In this document: piece by piece, positions 3,595-19,632 of the stretch
How positions within the stretch are numbered: position 1 is the first letter of the stretch
How the letters are laid out: each line of letters starts with the position of its first letter
DNA from: Clostridiales bacterium
GTDB lineage: Bacteria; Bacillota; Sulfobacillia; DYIH01; JBBITQ01
Length of the DNA stretch: 26,724 nucleotides
Assembly: GCA_037440685.1 (NCBI GenBank)
Contig: JBBITQ010000279.1
Span: forward strand, 1-26,724
Direction: 5' to 3'
The notes under the pieces: generated by a model
What the model was told of the DNA's origin: nothing
The model's input: only the letters and a program-made list of their open reading frames with translations
Databases searched by the model: none
Program-made: the position numbers and the translations under genes

Positions 3595-4191
3595 TCATGG
3601 TTGCGAAGTCGGTGGAAGCTCCAAGTCACCGCAATCAAGACAGACGGTTCGATCCGGCTTGGGATCGCAGTCCATCAGGTTTCCCTGCCGGTCGAACTCG
3701 AACACGCAGCACTGATCGAGAACATCCCGTAGCATCGCTCGCCCCCGCTGGACACGGGACTTCGCACCTGACACCGACAGCCTCAGCCGGTCAGCCACTT
3801 CGTGCTGAGGCAAGCCCTCGATCTCCGACAGTCTGACGGCCTCTTGGTATGTCGGCGGAAGTTGGCCGATCAGTTCTTCGAGCCAAAGGCCAGCACTGGC
3901 CTTGAGTTGGTCCTTCCCATCGTTCTCTTCAGCCACATCGTTGTCCGCCAACGACACGTTGCCCTTCTTCGCTCGGTAGTGGTCGTTGACTACATTCCGA
4001 GCTATCTGGTAGACCCACGCCGCCAAGCGGTCGGAATCTTCGAGCTTGTCCACGTTGCGGTGAATCCGCAGGAACGTCTCTTGGAGCAGATCGTCAGCCA
4101 CATGCTCATCGGCGACCCGACGACGGATGAACCGTCGCAGGTCGTCGCTGAGTTGTGACCAGATCGTTTCAGTGGCAGGGTTCGCAGTCAT
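3595..4191 (-). CDS. sigZ: ECF RNA polymerase sigma factor, SigZ-like, with Cys-rich C-terminal extension (copy 1)
   Basis: Region 2 (ADDLLQETFLRIH, LAAWVYQIARN), region 4 (SVSGAKSRVQRGR), tail CC-x12-C-x8-CxxC; alternative start 4212 overlaps the upstream stop (ATGA). Confidence 0.85.
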   Translation of the reverse strand: MTANPATETIWSQLSDDLRRFIRRRVADEHVADDLLQETFLRIHRNVDKLEDSDRLAAWVYQIARNVVNDHYRAKKGNVSLADNDVAEENDGKDQLKASAGLWLEELIGQLPPTYQEAVRLSEIEGLPQHEVADRLRLSVSGAKSRVQRGRAMLRDVLDQCCVFEFDRQGNLMDCDPKPDRTVCLDCGDLELPPTSQP

Positions 4192-4208
4192 CGCATTCCT
4201 CTGACCCT

Positions 4209-4769
4209 TCATTCTCCCGCTTCGCTCAGGCAGGAGCAAGCTGTCATGCCACCAGCCGCATGAAAGGCTTCCTGCGCCGCCACGAAGTCCCCTCGCTCCA
4301 CGGCCTGCATGACGGATGGAATCCCCGAGCAGCACGAGGACTGGTTGGATGCGTGCTGCTGGGCTTCGTTGTCGAGGACGACGTACACCTCCCAGTTGTT
4401 TCCATCGGGATCGGAGACCCACACCTTGTCCTGCACGGCGTAGCAGCAGGTCACGTTTTCCTCAATTCTCGTCTCCAGCCCGGCCTGCTGGAGCCGGTCG
4501 GCGATCTGTTTGACGGCTTTGCTCGTCTTCACCTGAACGCCGAAGTGGGCGACCGGATTGTTCTGGCCGGTCTCGCCGCCGACTTCGTTCAGCGACAGGT
4601 TCACGGGCGGCTCGGCCACCTCGAACTTTGCGTACCGTGGCCGAGTCTTGGTCGGGGGCTGGCCGAAAAGGGACGTGTAGAAGGCGATGGACTTCTCCAA
4701 ACTCTTGACCGCCAAGCCCATGTGGATTCGACTCTCGGTCTCGAATTGAACTGCGGAATGCCTGTTCAT
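4209..4769 (-). CDS. arsI: ArsI/CadI-family VOC metalloenzyme (putative C-As lyase) with Cys-rich tail (copy 1), 186 aa
   Basis: RIHMGL, VAHFG, VTCCYAVQDKVWVSDPDGNNWEVY motifs; SD AGGAG; tail carries SSCC and CSC. Confidence 0.85.
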   Translation of the reverse strand: MNRHSAVQFETESRIHMGLAVKSLEKSIAFYTSLFGQPPTKTRPRYAKFEVAEPPVNLSLNEVGGETGQNNPVAHFGVQVKTSKAVKQIADRLQQAGLETRIEENVTCCYAVQDKVWVSDPDGNNWEVYVVLDNEAQQHASNQSSCCSGIPSVMQAVERGDFVAAQEAFHAAGGMTACSCLSEAGE

Positions 4770-4912: not shown

Positions 4913-6421
4913 TCATTCCTTGGGAGAAACATCTGCATGGAATCCCGCACTGCTTATGGCAGACAGAACTTCTGGAGTCGGGAATCTACAGCACGCAGGG
5001 CTTTGGATTGTGGCACGGCCCGACTTGTGGTCCACATGGGCAGAGGAGATACTGGGAACACGGCGAAGCGCCTCGACAACCGCCGTCGCACACCCTTCGC
5101 AGGTCGAGCCGTCGATGTTCACCACGGTCTCTCGAACGTTTTCACTCTGGTCGCCACGGATGCGTGCAGCACCTTCGAGTGTGTTCGCAGGCATTACCGT
5201 CGTGTCGTTTGCTTTGGAGATTTCCTCTGCATTCAGAAGCTTTCCGGTGTATCCGGCTCTCTTCAAGGCCGCCAGAATCTCCTCTTTGGGGATCGGATTG
5301 CTGGGTTTCACGCCGACGACCGCCTGCCCTTTCTCATAGCTGACTTCGACGGCCATGACGCCGGGAACCTGACGGATCGCCTGAGCAACGGTCGTGGCGC
5401 AGCCTTCACAGGTCATGCCTTCGATCTGGAATACCGCCCGATTCACGTCCTCAGCGACGACGGCATGATCGCCCGTGCCGAACAGCAGACCGACGTAGCT
5501 GGGAAAGAAGAGGAAGGCGACCGCCAGCACTGTCACAACCCACAGCATCACCTTGTTCAAGGCCATCATGTTGAAGCGCTTGCTGCTGGGGGTGCAGCAG
5601 GCTTCCTCTCCTTCGGCTGGCTCCATAGCGCAGCAGCCATGTCCCGCTGCGGCAGCAGCTTTCCTTGGACGGTAGGTGAAGTAGAACGCCGCTCCGAGAA
5701 AGCCGAAGGTGACGACGATGAACAGTGGGCGATACGTTTCCGGTGTGGCAGCGATTCCGGCACCTGAGACACCCACGGCGAGCAGCACCAGCGGTAGCCA
5801 GCAGCAGGCCGAGGCCATGATCGCTGAGACGACCGTACCGACTTTGGCGATCTTTTCGCCACGACCCGTCGATGGCTTTTCCGCCGTCGCAGCGGTCAGG
5901 TTCGATTCAATCATTCCCAATTCCTCCTGAGCGATTTGGATGCCCTTGGTCACGCTCCCCAGACAGCAAGACCCGCTCGGATTGGAAGTCTCGCAATGGC
6001 AACCGGGGTCTTTCATCTTGGCCCGGATGTCTTCCAGAGCGTCGGAGCGGCCATTCGTGCGAAGCTCCTCTTTGATGCTGGCGACCGAATGCCCGAAGCA
6101 GTAGCACAAGGGCCGCTCACCACTGGTTTCCTTCACGCCGACCGTAACTTTGAGTTGCGACTTCGTGAATCTGGTGTCGCCTTCCTCCGAGAAGTACACC
6201 ACGTCACAGTCAGGTGAATCGCAGAATCGCCAGCCCGTATCGCCGGTGATCGGCGTGCATCCCTCACCGTCTGGACCGCAGCACGATTGATCGCCTTTGC
6301 CGATCTCGGTAGCGAACTGATCCTTGAGCAGCGCTCGTAAAGTCACCGGCGAGACCCGCTTCGCCTTCTTGTCGCAGGAGGGGCAAGCCACTCGCTTGGC
6401 CGTAGTTGTTTCTGCGGTCAT
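4913..6421 (-). CDS. Fusion protein: CopZ-N-type Zn/[2Fe-2S] domain + MerT-like membrane domain + two HMA domains, 502 aa
   Basis: CPSC, FCDSPDCDVVYF, CYC, C..NPSGSCC (Archaeoglobus CopZ N-domain pattern); MASACCWLPL..YRP (MerT pattern); GMTCEGC and GSTCEGC (HMA). Confidence 0.85.
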   Translation of the reverse strand: MTAETTTAKRVACPSCDKKAKRVSPVTLRALLKDQFATEIGKGDQSCCGPDGEGCTPITGDTGWRFCDSPDCDVVYFSEEGDTRFTKSQLKVTVGVKETSGERPLCYCFGHSVASIKEELRTNGRSDALEDIRAKMKDPGCHCETSNPSGSCCLGSVTKGIQIAQEELGMIESNLTAATAEKPSTGRGEKIAKVGTVVSAIMASACCWLPLVLLAVGVSGAGIAATPETYRPLFIVVTFGFLGAAFYFTYRPRKAAAAAGHGCCAMEPAEGEEACCTPSSKRFNMMALNKVMLWVVTVLAVAFLFFPSYVGLLFGTGDHAVVAEDVNRAVFQIEGMTCEGCATTVAQAIRQVPGVMAVEVSYEKGQAVVGVKPSNPIPKEEILAALKRAGYTGKLLNAEEISKANDTTVMPANTLEGAARIRGDQSENVRETVVNIDGSTCEGCATAVVEALRRVPSISSAHVDHKSGRATIQSPACCRFPTPEVLSAISSAGFHADVSPKE

Positions 6422-6484
6422 CGAACCACCTTTCCACCGGGATGACGAGAATAAGAACTCTTGTCGAAACCTCGTTCCACGTCT

Positions 6485-6516
6485 ATTATCGACATTGCAC
6501 CTAAGTACAAGGTCAA
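6485..6516 (-). promoter_or_regulatory. MerR-type promoter/operator for the fusion gene
   Basis: Minus strand TTGACC-N20-GATAAT with dyad ACCTTGTAC-TTAG-GTGCAATGT; long spacer is typical of MerR-family targets; divergent merR-like gene adjacent. Confidence 0.8.
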
Positions 6517-6592: not shown

Positions 6593-7009
6593 ATGCAAAG
6601 GCAATTCACGATCAGCCAAGTGGCACAAGCCGCCGAGCTTCCCACGACGACCGTGCGTTACTACGAGCGGGTCGGACTGGTCGAGCCGGAAGACCGCAGT
6701 GCGGGCAACTACCGCCTCTACAGTGAGGAGTCGCTCCGCAAGCTGAAGTTCATCCGGGCGGCACAGGCCATCGGCTTCACGCTGGACGACGTGAAGGCCC
6801 TCCTCTTGACCCCGAATAACACCGCCGCATCCTGTCGAGAAGTGCAGACGCTCATCGAAGATCGACTGGCCGAAGTCGATCAACGGCTGAAGGACTTGCG
6901 GCACGTTCAACGAGTGCTGAAGTCATCGCTGGAGAAGTGCAAAGAAACCGAGCGGGCCGACTGCTGCCACGTCATCGAGACGCTGCGAGAATCGTCAGGG
7001 ACGAAATGA
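6593..7009 (+). CDS. MerR-family metal-responsive regulator, 138 aa
   Basis: TISQVAQAA..TVRYYERVGL HTH; C81, C116, C124/C125 match the C82/C117/C126 spacing of Hg(II)-sensing MerR. Confidence 0.9.
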   Translation: MQRQFTISQVAQAAELPTTTVRYYERVGLVEPEDRSAGNYRLYSEESLRKLKFIRAAQAIGFTLDDVKALLLTPNNTAASCREVQTLIEDRLAEVDQRLKDLRHVQRVLKSSLEKCKETERADCCHVIETLRESSGTK

Positions 7010-7965
7010 CGGCTCTCGAACGACACCAAGTCCCGATCTACTTCGCCGCCGTGTTTGTCGGAGCGTCTGCCGGGTTGCTGTTACCTGATGCGGCAGCGGC
7101 TCTGGAAGTAGCGATCTGGCCCGTCGTGGGCATCCTGTTATACTTCACGTTTCTGCAAGTGCCGCTGCTTCAGTTCCAGCAGGCCATTTCTGACGTGCGG
7201 TTTCTCGCCGCCATGCTGACCGCCAACTTCGTGTTCGTGCCGTTTGTCGTCTGGAGCTTGTTGTGGCTGCTTCCACCGTCGCCGCCGATCCATCTCGGCG
7301 TGGCGTTGGTCCTTTTGACGCCTTGCACCGACTGGATGAACACCTTCACGCTGCTGGGAAAAGGTGACGCTCACCGGACGCTGGCGGCGACCCCGCTACT
7401 GCTGATAACGCAGATTGTCTTGCTCCCCGTGTTTCTGTGGCTGCTGCTGGAGAGCGACACGAGCCGGATGGTGGCGACCGGCCCATTCGTGCAGGCATTC
7501 GCTGGCTTGGTCATGCTGCCGCTCTTGCTGGCGTGGCTGACCGAATGGTGGGGCAAACGAAACGAACGGGTCGCCCACTGGATCGGCATGTCCACTCCGC
7601 TGCCCGTTGTCCTGCTGTCATTGGTCGTGCTGGTGATCGCCGCCTCGCAGATTCAGCAGGTGTTGGACCATGTTCGCCAACTGACGCAGGTGACGTTGAT
7701 CTTCGTGCTGTTTGTGGCATTGGCGGCGGTTATTGGTCGGCTGACGGTCTGGCTTTATTCCCTGCCGCCGCAAGCAGGCCGGGGCGTGATCTTCAGTACC
7801 AGCACCCGCAATTCGTTCGTGGTGCTGCCGCTGGCCTTGGCATTGCCCTCAGAGTGGCAACTGGCCGTGCCAGTGATCGTCATTCAGGCGTTTGTCGAGA
7901 TGCTGGGGATGCTCGTCTTCATCCGCATCGTGCCGGGCTGGTTGCTGCGAGGTACGTCCGCCTGA
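7006..7965 (+). CDS. Acr3/BART-superfamily membrane transporter (putative arsenite efflux), 319 aa
   Basis: About 10 hydrophobic segments, LTPCTDW (cf. Acr3 PC motif), TSTRNS; ATGA overlap with the merR-like stop. Confidence 0.75.
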   Translation: MTALERHQVPIYFAAVFVGASAGLLLPDAAAALEVAIWPVVGILLYFTFLQVPLLQFQQAISDVRFLAAMLTANFVFVPFVVWSLLWLLPPSPPIHLGVALVLLTPCTDWMNTFTLLGKGDAHRTLAATPLLLITQIVLLPVFLWLLLESDTSRMVATGPFVQAFAGLVMLPLLLAWLTEWWGKRNERVAHWIGMSTPLPVVLLSLVVLVIAASQIQQVLDHVRQLTQVTLIFVLFVALAAVIGRLTVWLYSLPPQAGRGVIFSTSTRNSFVVLPLALALPSEWQLAVPVIVIQAFVEMLGMLVFIRIVPGWLLRGTSA

Positions 7966-17457: not shown

Positions 17458-18057
17458 CTACGAGTCGCCCCCGATGGATGGAATCTCCAAGTCGCCACAA
17501 TCACGGCAGACGGTGCGATCTGGCTTGGGATCGCAGTCCATCAGGTTGCCCTGCCGGTCGAACTCGAACACGCAGCATTGATCGAGTGCGCCTCGAAGCA
17601 AGACTCGCCCTCGCTGGACACGGGACTTCGCACCCGACACCGACAGGCCCAGTCGGTCAGCGACTTCGTGTTGGGGCAAGCCCTCGATCTCCGATAGTCT
17701 GACCGCCTCTTGGTAGGTCGGCGGAAGTTGACCAATCAGTTCGTCGAGCCAGATGCCCGCACTGGCCTTGAGTTGGTTCTCTCCATCGCTCTCTTCGGCC
17801 ACATCGTTGTCCGCCAGCGACACGTTGCCGTTCTTCGCCCGGTAGTGGTCGTGCATCACGTTGCGAGCGATCTGGTAGACCCACGCCGCCAAGCGGTCGG
17901 TCTCTTCGAGCTTGTCCACATTGCGATGAATCCGCAGGAAGGTCTCTTGGAGCAGATCGTCAGCCACATGCTCATCGGCGACCCGGCGACGGATGAACCG
18001 TCGCAGGTCGTCGCTGAGTTGAGACCAGATCGTTTCGGTGGCGGGGTTCGCAGTCAT
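17458..18057 (-). CDS. sigZ: SigZ-like ECF sigma factor with Cys-rich tail (copy 2)
   Basis: Paralog of 3595-4191, intact, same CC-x12-C-x8-CxxC tail; alternative start 18078. Confidence 0.85.
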   Translation of the reverse strand: MTANPATETIWSQLSDDLRRFIRRRVADEHVADDLLQETFLRIHRNVDKLEETDRLAAWVYQIARNVMHDHYRAKNGNVSLADNDVAEESDGENQLKASAGIWLDELIGQLPPTYQEAVRLSEIEGLPQHEVADRLGLSVSGAKSRVQRGRVLLRGALDQCCVFEFDRQGNLMDCDPKPDRTVCRDCGDLEIPSIGGDS

Positions 18058-18074
18058 CGCATTCCTCTGACCGT

Positions 18075-18635
18075 TCATGTTCCGGCTTCGCCCAAACAAG
18101 AGCAAGCTGTCATCCCACCTGCCGCATGAAAGGCTGCCTGAGCCGCCACGAAGTCGCCTCGCTCGACGGCCTGCATGACGGATGGAATCCCCGAGCAGCA
18201 CGAGGACTGGCTGGATGCGTGCTGCTGGGCTTCGTTGTCGAGGACGACGTACACCTCCCAGTTGTTTCCATCTGGATCGGCGACCCATACCTTGTCCTGC
18301 ACGGCGTAACAACAGGTCACGTTCTCTTCGATCCTCGTTTCGAGTCCGGCTTGTTGAAGCCGGTCGGCGATCTGTTTGACGGCTTCGCTCCTCTTCACCT
18401 GAATGCCGAAGTGGGCGACTGGGTTGTTCTGGCCGGTCTCGCCGCCGACTTCGTTCAGCGAGAGGTTCACGGGCGGCTCGGCAACCTCGAACTTGGCGTA
18501 CCGTGGCCGAGTCTTGGTCGGGGGCTGCCCGAGTAGAGACGTGTAGAAGGCGATGGACTTCTCCAGATTCTTCACGGCCAAGCCCATGTGGATTCGACTC
18601 TCGGTCTCGAATTGAACTGCGGATTTGGTGTTCAT
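18075..18635 (-). CDS. arsI: ArsI/CadI-family VOC metalloenzyme (copy 2), 186 aa
   Basis: Same length and motifs as copy 1 (TCCYA, H/H/E ligands, SSCC, CSC). Confidence 0.85.
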   Translation of the reverse strand: MNTKSAVQFETESRIHMGLAVKNLEKSIAFYTSLLGQPPTKTRPRYAKFEVAEPPVNLSLNEVGGETGQNNPVAHFGIQVKRSEAVKQIADRLQQAGLETRIEENVTCCYAVQDKVWVADPDGNNWEVYVVLDNEAQQHASSQSSCCSGIPSVMQAVERGDFVAAQAAFHAAGGMTACSCLGEAGT

Positions 18636-18691
18636 GATTTGCTCCTCCTTCGTGCTTCGACGGCTGCCAATCAGCCGTCTCTGAAAGTACA

Positions 18692-18717
18692 GACGGGGGT
18701 TCACCGAAAAGGACGCA
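18692..18717 (-). promoter_or_regulatory. Candidate ECF promoter TGCGTC-N16-CGTC (copy 2)
   Basis: Boxes identical to 4826-4851; homology between the repeats stops 4 nt beyond the -35 box. Confidence 0.65.
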
Positions 18718-18738
18718 AGAAATCGCCGAGCCGCCGAC

Positions 18739-19632
18739 TCAGGGCTTCCGTGCGATGACCGATTCGTCCCCGAGAGTGGCAGCAAGGCGAGTCACGGCCC
18801 AGCGGTGACTTTCATGCGTGAGGTGTGCCATTGCCTCGTCCTCTGCCAACCAGATGAGTTGGTGGTCAGCCTCGACGTGCGACCCCTTTGCCAAAACGAC
18901 GGCAGAGTAGAATGAACATCGCTTGCAGAAGTGCCGACCTTCATCCTCTGCGAAGACGAACTCGTCCGCCACGCCGATGGGCCTACCCGCTTCAACTGCC
19001 AGTCCGCACTCTTCCAGCACCTCACGCTTCAATGTGTCGATGGCCGACTCCCCCGTATCCTGCCCTCCTCCCGGCAGGTAGTTTCCCGTTGGTGTGGTGA
19101 CGACGGCGATTCGCCCGGCCTCGTCCGCAATCAGGGCATACGCACCGGGGCGCAGCGTGTAGCTGATGTCTTCGACTCGTTTCCCGAACTCTGGGAAGGC
19201 CAGCCCGATCTTGTCCAGAGGGGCAAGGTCCGGCTCGACGAAACCAGATTTGGCAGCCGGTTCCATGATCCGGTCTCTCGTGAAATAGCAGAGCAGGACT
19301 CGACGATCCAAAAGCTCGGGGTTTCGCTCGCAGAACTCGTGCGAGTCCTGAATCGGCCCATGCTCTCGCAGGGCTTGGTGGATCAGGCACATGAACGCTT
19401 GGGTCGTCGTTTCGTGGTAGCCCGTCAGAGGACCGTCTTCGACACCGTGAACGGCGTTGTACGCCTTGATGCCGGATCGCATCCGGTCGATGGCTTCGTC
19501 CAGCCCAAGGTGAGACAGGTACAGGAAGGCGATCCGAACTTGCGCCCGGTGGTTCCAGTGCGTGAACGGCAGCGAGCAGTCCAAGAACGCTCTCAAGAAG
19601 TCATCGTCGTTCACGGAATCTGCCCCAGTCAC
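18739..19632 (-). CDS. Uncharacterised N-terminal domain fused to a Nudix hydrolase, 297 aa
   Basis: Complete Nudix box GGQDTGESAIDTLKREVLEECGL; N-terminal half has WNHRAQ..YHETTT..EPDL. Confidence 0.8.
   Translation of the reverse strand: MTGADSVNDDDFLRAFLDCSLPFTHWNHRAQVRIAFLYLSHLGLDEAIDRMRSGIKAYNAVHGVEDGPLTGYHETTTQAFMCLIHQALREHGPIQDSHEFCERNPELLDRRVLLCYFTRDRIMEPAAKSGFVEPDLAPLDKIGLAFPEFGKRVEDISYTLRPGAYALIADEAGRIAVVTTPTGNYLPGGGQDTGESAIDTLKREVLEECGLAVEAGRPIGVADEFVFAEDEGRHFCKRCSFYSAVVLAKGSHVEADHQLIWLAEDEAMAHLTHESHRWAVTRLAATLGDESVIARKP

Follow-up and report, generated by a model that had tools for sequence, protein, structure and literature searches.

A MerR-controlled MerT fusion with a tethered CopZ-N-type domain, a candidate Hg(II) uptake module found mostly without MerA

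In the Tn21/Tn501 mercury-resistance loci, a divergently encoded MerR controls merT and merP from a long-spacer promoter with a dyad; MerT has three membrane helices, a Cys pair in its first transmembrane helix (TM1) and cysteines in its cytoplasmic loop, and MerP is a periplasmic HMA domain with a GMTCxxC motif. MerTP (NF033556) carries MerT and then a C-terminal HMA in one polypeptide. Textbook mercury resistance requires the reductase MerA, and uptake without MerA is thought to be harmful. Here we analyze a 26.7-kb window of subsurface metagenome DNA (the whole of contig JBBITQ010000279.1, 26,724 nt), in which a merR-family gene lies divergent from a gene whose single product joins a CopZ-N-type domain, a MerT membrane domain and two HMA domains (Table 1). 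The features listed above for Tn21/Tn501 have counterparts in this cassette, with the cytoplasmic side of the loop and the periplasmic side of the HMAs predicted; it differs in that MerT and MerP are one chain, the HMA is present in two copies, a 170-aa Zn/Fe-S-type domain stands in front, two vicinal Cys pairs lie in a cytoplasmic loop of greater length, and merA is usually absent. Neither the fusion nor its regulator reaches the NCBIfam equivalog cut-off, for MerT and MerR respectively. MerTP, in contrast to the fusion, has no N-terminal domain and only one HMA. We see in the fusion a new version of the MerT/MerP uptake module, one to which a CopZ-N-type cytoplasmic domain is tethered and which travels with its MerR as an autonomous cassette.

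The N-terminal domain has described relatives of its own. CopZ of Archaeoglobus fulgidus (AF0346) shares the fold, keeps all the aligned cysteines and likewise joins the domain to an HMA; it is, however, a soluble cytoplasmic copper chaperone that feeds CopA, whereas the context of the fusion is mer rather than cop, and in the fusion the MerT membrane domain parts the N-domain from the HMAs, which are predicted to lie across the membrane from it. NmerA, whose role the N-domain may share, is a cytoplasmic Cys domain that takes Hg(II) from MerT to the MerA core, with a ferredoxin-like HMA fold on the enzyme where the fusion has a zinc ribbon and cluster domain on the transporter. Members of NF047645 are free-standing proteins of ~150 aa, some of them in mer operons, whereas the N-domain of the fusion is part of a longer chain. 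That fusions of MerT-CopZ type had earlier come to the notice of curators is clear from the model NF045683 ('MerT/CopZ fusion-like heavy metal transport selenoprotein'); it describes a 235-aa protein that lacks the N-domain, and our fusion scores 67 against its cut-off of 375.

Pfam profiles recognize zf_CopZ (56 bits, cut-off 28.4), MerT PF02411 (42.1 bits, gathering score 32.9) and, in two stretches, HMA (79.3 bits, cut-off 24.8) along the fusion. The NCBIfam MerT equivalog PRK13751 spans residues 184-312 at 46.5 bits (cut-off 150), while MerTP_fusion NF033556 is the top NCBIfam match for residues 197-392, at 134.2 and below its cut-off of 180. Together with the sequence and fold match of the N-domain to the A. 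fulgidus structure 2HU9, these profiles confirm the four-domain architecture proposed in a preliminary description of the locus. A false fusion caused by a sequencing error at a stop codon is excluded by the more than 100 proteins from independent assemblies that share this architecture, and the separate domains in one intact protein are thus genuine. An upstream extension of the frame is possible on paper; the likely start is nevertheless the ATG at 6421, because this codon and the GGAAAGGTGG that precedes it are both kept in the nearest relatives (loci L015 and L009) and the homologues begin at the same residue. An AlphaFold2 model of the whole chain has a predicted template modeling score of 0.44, leaving the domain packing uncertain.

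We judged the conservation of residues across 70 diverse relatives, and counted motifs and Cys arms in 248 fused relatives and 54 free-standing members of the N-domain family. The N-domain reaches 104.2 bits on NF047645 (CopZ_Nterm_CC, 'putative iron-sulfur cluster-binding metallochaperone'), barely above the cut-off of 100, and matches 2HU9 both in sequence (E=9e-15, 32% identity) and in fold (TM-score 0.83, root-mean-square deviation 2.8 Å). Its zinc-ribbon-type cysteines (C13/C16/C67/C72) and cluster-type cysteines (C106/C108/C143/C152-C153) pair in the alignment with C4, C7, C38, C43, C75, C77, C109 and C118/C119 of 2HU9, which we take to be the zinc and [2Fe-2S] ligands of that protein. 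The zinc-ribbon cysteines, the CYC motif (C106, C108), C143 and the CC pair C152/C153 are each invariant or at least 90% conserved, and the retention of all aligned ligand cysteines in fused and free-standing proteins alike suggests that the cluster has been kept. The flexible insert SCC...C within the zinc ribbon is missing from 2HU9 and from distant relatives, and 111 of the 248 fused relatives have it. The preliminary description, which had reported an Fe-S-type domain with an extra insert, was therefore right that both are present, although the insert marks the closer subfamily only. A flexible cytoplasmic CC arm as a universal feature was considered and rejected: with 165/248 fused and 41/54 free-standing proteins carrying one, it is a tendency and not a rule.

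AlphaFold2 places the three membrane helices of the MerT domain at residues 187-215, 220-250 and 285-313. The vicinal pair C206/C207 of TM1, in a CCW.P motif, is invariant among the relatives, as are C338 and C341 of the first HMA CxxC; in the loop between TM2 and TM3, C274 is at least 90% conserved and two CC pairs occur in 161 of the 248 fused proteins. This loop is the 'CC-rich linker' of the preliminary description, which turns out to lie inside MerT, as PRK13751 reaches residue 312 and TM3 comes after it. Both HMA domains of the window fusion have their CxxC motif, and in fold comparison the HMA resembles both MerP (1osd, 1afi) and CopZ proteins. Across the fused relatives one HMA (177 proteins) is more common than two (63). 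In second HMA domains a further vicinal pair (SPACC.FP) is conserved towards the end of the fold, and some first HMAs have a similar CC at the equivalent place. Lys and Arg residues number four before TM1, six in the TM2-TM3 loop, one in the TM1-TM2 turn and one after TM3. From this positive-inside distribution and the odd number of helices we infer the classical MerT orientation, in which the N-terminus and the loop would face the cytoplasm and the C-terminus the outside, with the N-domain cytoplasmic and both HMAs periplasmic. The domain order of the fusion, which resembles that of MerTP, counts in favor of this predicted topology.

The regulator scores below every NCBIfam equivalog cut-off, with 111.3 on TIGR02051 (cut-off 150.85) and 110.4 on the ZntR-type model PRK09514. 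Its best solved relative is the Bacillus Hg-MerR 4UA1 (83 bits), and in a gapless alignment Cys81, Cys116 and Cys125 fall in register with the Hg ligands C79, C114 and C123, which, as far as the ligands go, bears out the Hg-type MerR of the preliminary description. The next-best solved matches, PbrR-type 5GPE and CadR, have cysteines at the same positions, and the pattern is hence not exclusive to Hg. An overlong spacer around the operator is the hallmark of MerR-type activation. The fusion promoter has such a spacer, and within it a 9-4-9 dyad (ACCTTGCAC-N4-GTGCAAGGT) that is a perfect palindrome in L027; in the window copy, at 6492-6513, 7 of 9 pairs match. An inverted-repeat search of the intergenic region returned no match; the imperfect dyad is visible only by comparing loci. 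The -35, the 20-nt spacer with the dyad, and the -10 are kept in 24/24 loci compared, whether MerA-linked or MerA-less. A promoter-like site on the + strand (6461-6489) overlaps the fusion promoter and faces merR.

Table 1 Coordinates of the merR + fusion cassette in the 26.7-kb window; residue numbers refer to the fusion protein except in the regulator row
Feature	Position	Strand	Residues	Description
Fusion gene	4913..6421	-	502 aa + stop	CopZ-NT domain, MerT domain, HMA1, HMA2; frame free of stops
CopZ-N-type domain, probably cytoplasmic	5912..6394	-	~10-170	PF18423 and NF047645 over cut-offs; 2HU9 match; predicted local distance difference test (pLDDT) 92-97
Flexible Cys-rich insert SCC...C in zinc ribbon	6242..6298	-	~42-60	pLDDT ~62
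MerT membrane domain	5477..5875	-	~183-315	TM1 (C206/C207), TM2, cytoplasmic loop, TM3; PF02411, PRK13751
TM2-TM3 loop, predicted cytoplasmic	5570..5671	-	~251-284	GHGCC...EACC, two vicinal Cys pairs
HMA1, predicted periplasmic	5237..5443	-	~327-395	GMTCEGC; PF00403; MerP-like
HMA2, predicted periplasmic	4928..5137	-	~429-498	GSTCEGC, plus a SPACC motif; second PF00403 stretch; pLDDT 94-97
MerR-type promoter/operator of the fusion	6485..6516	-		-35 TTGACC 6511-6516; 20-nt spacer; -10 GATAAT 6485-6490
merR-family regulator	6593..7009	+	138 aa	Divergent; Cys81, Cys116, Cys124/125; Pfam MerR_1 and MerR-DNA-bind

A search of 5.8 billion proteins returned 755 matches to the fusion; among the 120 best, the three Pfam domains occur together in more than 100, and the best matches come almost wholly from Planctomycetota (Gimesia, Roseimaritima, Rhodopirellula, Stieleria, Novipirellula and others). 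An exhaustive profile search yielded 233 clusters at 50% identity (E<1e-30), and a scan of one genome per species found a relative in 257 genomes, nearly all of them Planctomycetota. RefSeq names these relatives 'mercuric transporter MerT family protein', and other sources call them CopZ or even P-type ATPase. The fusion family is large and visible in databases, yet unstudied.

No merA is present in the 26.7-kb window, so the absence of a nearby merA noted in the preliminary description holds for its full length, and absence turns out to be the rule for the family. In whole-genome searches of 76 fusion-carrying genomes, a MerA over the TIGR02053 cut-off (454) was found in 11, with one further truncated copy, and 64 were without; the MerA-less set includes the complete chromosomes of Stieleria magnilauensis TBK1r (with two copies of the fusion), Novipirellula SH528 and Bythopirellula OZ244170. 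In keeping with this majority, a published survey reported MerA from just one Planctomycetes genome (PMC8261052). Proteins just below the cut-off (385-413 bits) were rejected as divergent MerAs, as they stop before the C-terminal Cys pair: the four that we inspected end without CC, and one of them scores 786 bits on NF004991, 'FAD-containing oxidoreductase'. Genes of this NF004991 type, with GGDCLNVGCVPS and no C-terminal CC, lie within 10 kb of the cassette in ~6 of the 76 genomes (L022:7068-8483, L025:15673-17220, L092:10039-11553 and L055:1-876, and also near L043 and L066), above the chance expectation for genomes of 5-10 Mb. A MerR-controlled candidate uptake cassette that has spread through a phylum mostly without MerA is a surprise, and so is the N-domain as a recurrent mer component.

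A MerA follows the cassette in ~12 of the 76 genomes. On a Gimesia chromosome (L009), whose fusion is 71% identical to ours, the order is merR, fusion, a secreted two-HMA protein and a 475-aa MerA (500 bits on TIGR02053). The protein between fusion and merA (185 aa, L009:11604-12161, and also in L068) has a signal-peptide-like N-terminus and HMA repeats, and would be an additional free MerP-like component. MerAs 66-80% identical to that of L009 come after the fusion in L016, L023, L025, L029, L038, L066, L068, L069 and L071, and more distant ones (40% identity) flank it in L018 and L088; the fusions with a downstream MerA are 57-80% identical to that of the window. All of these fusion-linked MerAs show the CxxxxC motif of the active site and end in an SCC tail, and at ~476 aa they are too short to include NmerA.

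Several observations indicate that the mobile unit is the cassette and that MerA is an optional neighbor. When the open reading frames within 6 kb of the fusion were clustered at 83 loci, merR was the sole consistent neighbor (68 loci), followed by MerA-type flavoproteins (15), RND (14), P-type ATPase (12), ArsR (10) and YnfA (9) genes. On the fusion tree the MerA-linked rows are scattered like shuffled labels, requiring 11 changes for 12 rows against a shuffled mean of 11.5, and the nearest tree neighbors of the window fusion include one MerA-linked and one MerA-less member. In the near-identical pairs L017 versus L023/L016 and L027 versus L068, homology covers merR and the fusion alone (~2.1 kb, 90-94% nucleotide identity), and goes no further; the two genes are thus a conserved unit that moves horizontally as one.

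The N-domain also occurs as a free-standing protein of ~150-170 aa, over the NF047645 cut-off and with every conserved Cys present, and such genes are found within mer operons of other lineages. One locus (L139:4405-8534) has the order merT, copZ-NT, merB-like lyase and merA (474 aa, 531 bits), with merR further on; in another (L095:4648-7147) arsR is followed by a copZ-NT that overlaps the start of a 546-aa MerA (523 bits) by 4 nt; and in a third (L096:3758-5471) merR, merT, merP-like and copZ-NT are four separate genes. In a sample of 35 metagenome loci whose N-domain gene is flanked to either side by 1.5 kb or more, MerT in any form is a neighbor in 17 (fused in 5, a separate gene in 12), a MerA-like flavoprotein in 10, and one or the other in 21. 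Moreover, the 664-aa protein P0175 is a MerB (alkylmercury lyase)-MerT-HMA fusion in which MerB takes the position of the N-domain on the MerT-HMA chassis, indicating that other cytoplasmic Hg-handling domains can occupy this place. These mer-operon neighborhoods and fusions argue that the N-domain acts as a partner of MerT in the cytoplasmic part of mercury handling, as an accessory component that has so far gone unnamed. MerAs beside a fused or free-standing N-domain are without NmerA in 13 of 15 cases, which are not independent of one another, and the idea that the N-domain stands in for NmerA is only suggestive. A recurrent operon (L134:5017-7844, L140, L142, L171 and L124) combines ArsR, a 200-aa MerT-HMA fusion, a free-standing CopZ-NT with an N-terminal CC, and a glutathione-reductase-like flavoprotein; the latter has no C-terminal Cys pair, is below all NCBIfam cut-offs and may be a non-MerA partner reductase.

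On this evidence we favor reading the merR + fusion cassette as an importer, induced by Hg(II), in which built-in MerP-like catchers pass the ion along a thiol relay to a tethered cytoplasmic acceptor that supplies MerA if the enzyme is present, and we put the probability of this reading at roughly 0.6. Metal-free MerR would keep the long-spacer promoter closed, and Hg(II) bound to its three cysteines would realign the -35 and -10 elements and turn the fusion gene on. The product would sit in the inner membrane with its N-terminal end on the cytoplasmic side and its C-terminal end in the periplasm, where the two HMAs would capture Hg(II) in the role of MerP and pass it to the TM1 Cys pair and on to the Cys pairs of the cytoplasmic loop. 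The final acceptor would be the tethered CopZ-N-type domain, by way of the invariant CC beside the cluster site and, in this subfamily, the flexible CC insert. With a downstream MerA, usually a 475-aa core without NmerA, the N-domain would deliver Hg(II) to the reductase, a tethered domain on the transporter thereby playing the part that NmerA plays on the enzyme. In the MerA-less majority, and probably in the element described here, Hg(II) would be cleared from the periplasm and then parked on the N-domain or given to cytoplasmic thiols.

Several points weigh against this importer. Cells that take up Hg(II) but lack a reductase are known to become more sensitive, and the reading does not explain what the 64 of 76 genomes without MerA gain from the cassette. 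An exposed Fe-S cluster next to the Hg(II) exit would be vulnerable, and the strict conservation of all cluster ligands hints at something beyond a mere thiol acceptor. Whether the N-domain is an NmerA-like hand-off domain or more bears on the counting of mer genes in environmental surveys, in which merT matches are often taken as Hg(II) reduction capacity. The regulator falls short of the Hg-MerR equivalog cut-off, is about level on the ZntR model, and has PbrR-type 5GPE and CadR as its runners-up. General heavy-metal efflux genes are frequent neighbors (RND in 14/83 loci, P-type ATPase in 12/83). The MerA of L095, and probably that of L112, carries NmerA, making the replacement idea only a tendency, and a literature search on the fusion architecture, PF18423/CopZ-NT and planctomycete mer systems found no specific paper.

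A distinct though lesser possibility makes the cassette the ordinary uptake arm of a mer system, with the true host of the mobile element carrying, outside the window, a merA that the cassette feeds. The family does serve as the transporter of real mer operons in ~12 of the 76 genomes. No MerA over the TIGR02053 cut-off was found in the source bin, where the best match reached 202 bits among weak flavoproteins; this negative says little, because the bin is 83% complete and the contig, which resembles island cargo, is a compositional outlier within it. This alternative has to contend with the 64 fusion genomes, complete chromosomes among them, that have no MerA over the cut-off, with the closest relative, L015, which has the same layout and likewise comes from a MerA-less genome, and with the lone MerA-bearing Planctomycetes genome of the published survey.

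It is rather unlikely that the metal handled by the MerT/HMA chassis and sensed by the regulator is a thiophilic one other than Hg (Cd, Pb, Zn, Cu, Ag or Au). The regulator scores alike on the ZntR and MerR models and below all cut-offs, the PbrR-type and CadR structures are close seconds with the same Cys positions, RND, CDF and P-type ATPase genes give the neighborhoods the look of mixed metal islands, and the only studied relative of the N-domain (2HU9) belongs to a copper chaperone. However, the Hg(II)-specific MerA follows the same cassette, with the same operator, in a dozen genomes, MerB-type domains or genes occur on the same chassis or in the same operon, and the best solved relative of the regulator is a Hg-MerR. 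CueR-type copper sensors, for their part, are without the first Cys. The earlier suggestion of a MerT scaffold repurposed for another metal is thus weakened by the links to MerA and MerB, and retains the Cys pattern shared with PbrR-/CadR-type regulators in its favor.

A bolder proposal, which we regard as unlikely, is that the CopZ-N-type domain, as a mer component so far unrecognised, frees Hg(II) handling from the need for MerA, through either cluster-driven reduction or safe cytoplasmic sequestration, such that the cassette would by itself be a complete resistance determinant in Planctomycetota. Its reductive form was anticipated in the preliminary description as a self-contained bind-transport-reduce device. 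In that case the [2Fe-2S] cluster of the N-domain would reduce imported Hg(II) to Hg(0), or imported Cu(II) to Cu(I), and MerA would be unnecessary. Fused and free-standing proteins show little or no variation at the cysteines that align with the 2HU9 ligands for Zn and the cluster, most cassette genomes have no MerA, and the A. fulgidus domain reportedly reduces Cu(II) in vitro. Set against this, a [2Fe-2S] cluster carries one electron and Hg(II) needs two, and Hg(II) destroys exposed Fe-S clusters. Neither a flavin nor an NAD(P)H domain is part of the fusion, and no gene for an electron donor is conserved beside it, merR being its only constant partner within 6 kb. Near-identical cassettes occur both with and without a MerA directly downstream, for which reason a hand-off domain fits better than a second reductase, and the N-domain, fused or free-standing in mer operons, stands alongside MerA in 14 or more loci, which would have no need of a second reductase. 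We accordingly consider a self-contained reductase quite improbable. We give very little credence to an outward relay, from the cytoplasmic domain through MerT to the periplasmic HMAs and RND pumps, since, although a thiol relay has no inherent direction and RND and other efflux genes are common neighbors, there is no energy-coupling element, a downstream cytoplasmic MerA makes sense only with import and, to our knowledge, all studied MerT/MerP systems import.

The contig itself stands apart from the bin to which it was assigned. Its GC content of 57.7% is the lowest of 280 contigs (bin mean 69.4%), and it is the most extreme tetranucleotide outlier of the bin (z=-5 on the first principal component); judged by composition, it is probably either mis-binned or a recently acquired island. 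The closest relative, L015, comes from a bin labelled Bacteroidales and shares sigZ, arsI, the fusion, merR and ars genes at 84-93% nucleotide identity. The cassette appears to be cargo of a mobile metal/arsenic island whose host, though uncertain, is probably a planctomycete. A scan of the window for tRNA and tmRNA genes gave no match.

Directly downstream of the fusion, and separate from it, lies the first copy of a two-gene module that occurs twice on the (-) strand of the window, at 3595-4769 and 17458-18785 (13,866 bp from start to start). Each copy encodes an ArsI/CadI-type vicinal oxygen chelate (VOC) enzyme and a SigZ-type extracytoplasmic function (ECF) sigma factor, each with a Cys-rich tail, and the copies are 94% and 91% identical at the protein level. 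On the other side of the cassette, an SBF/ACR3-like permease frame (6937-7965, + strand) overlaps, as called, the 3' end of merR by ~70 nt. L015 is collinear apart from this permease, which its merR-arsR interval lacks, and L084 has it next to merR, with 67% protein identity.

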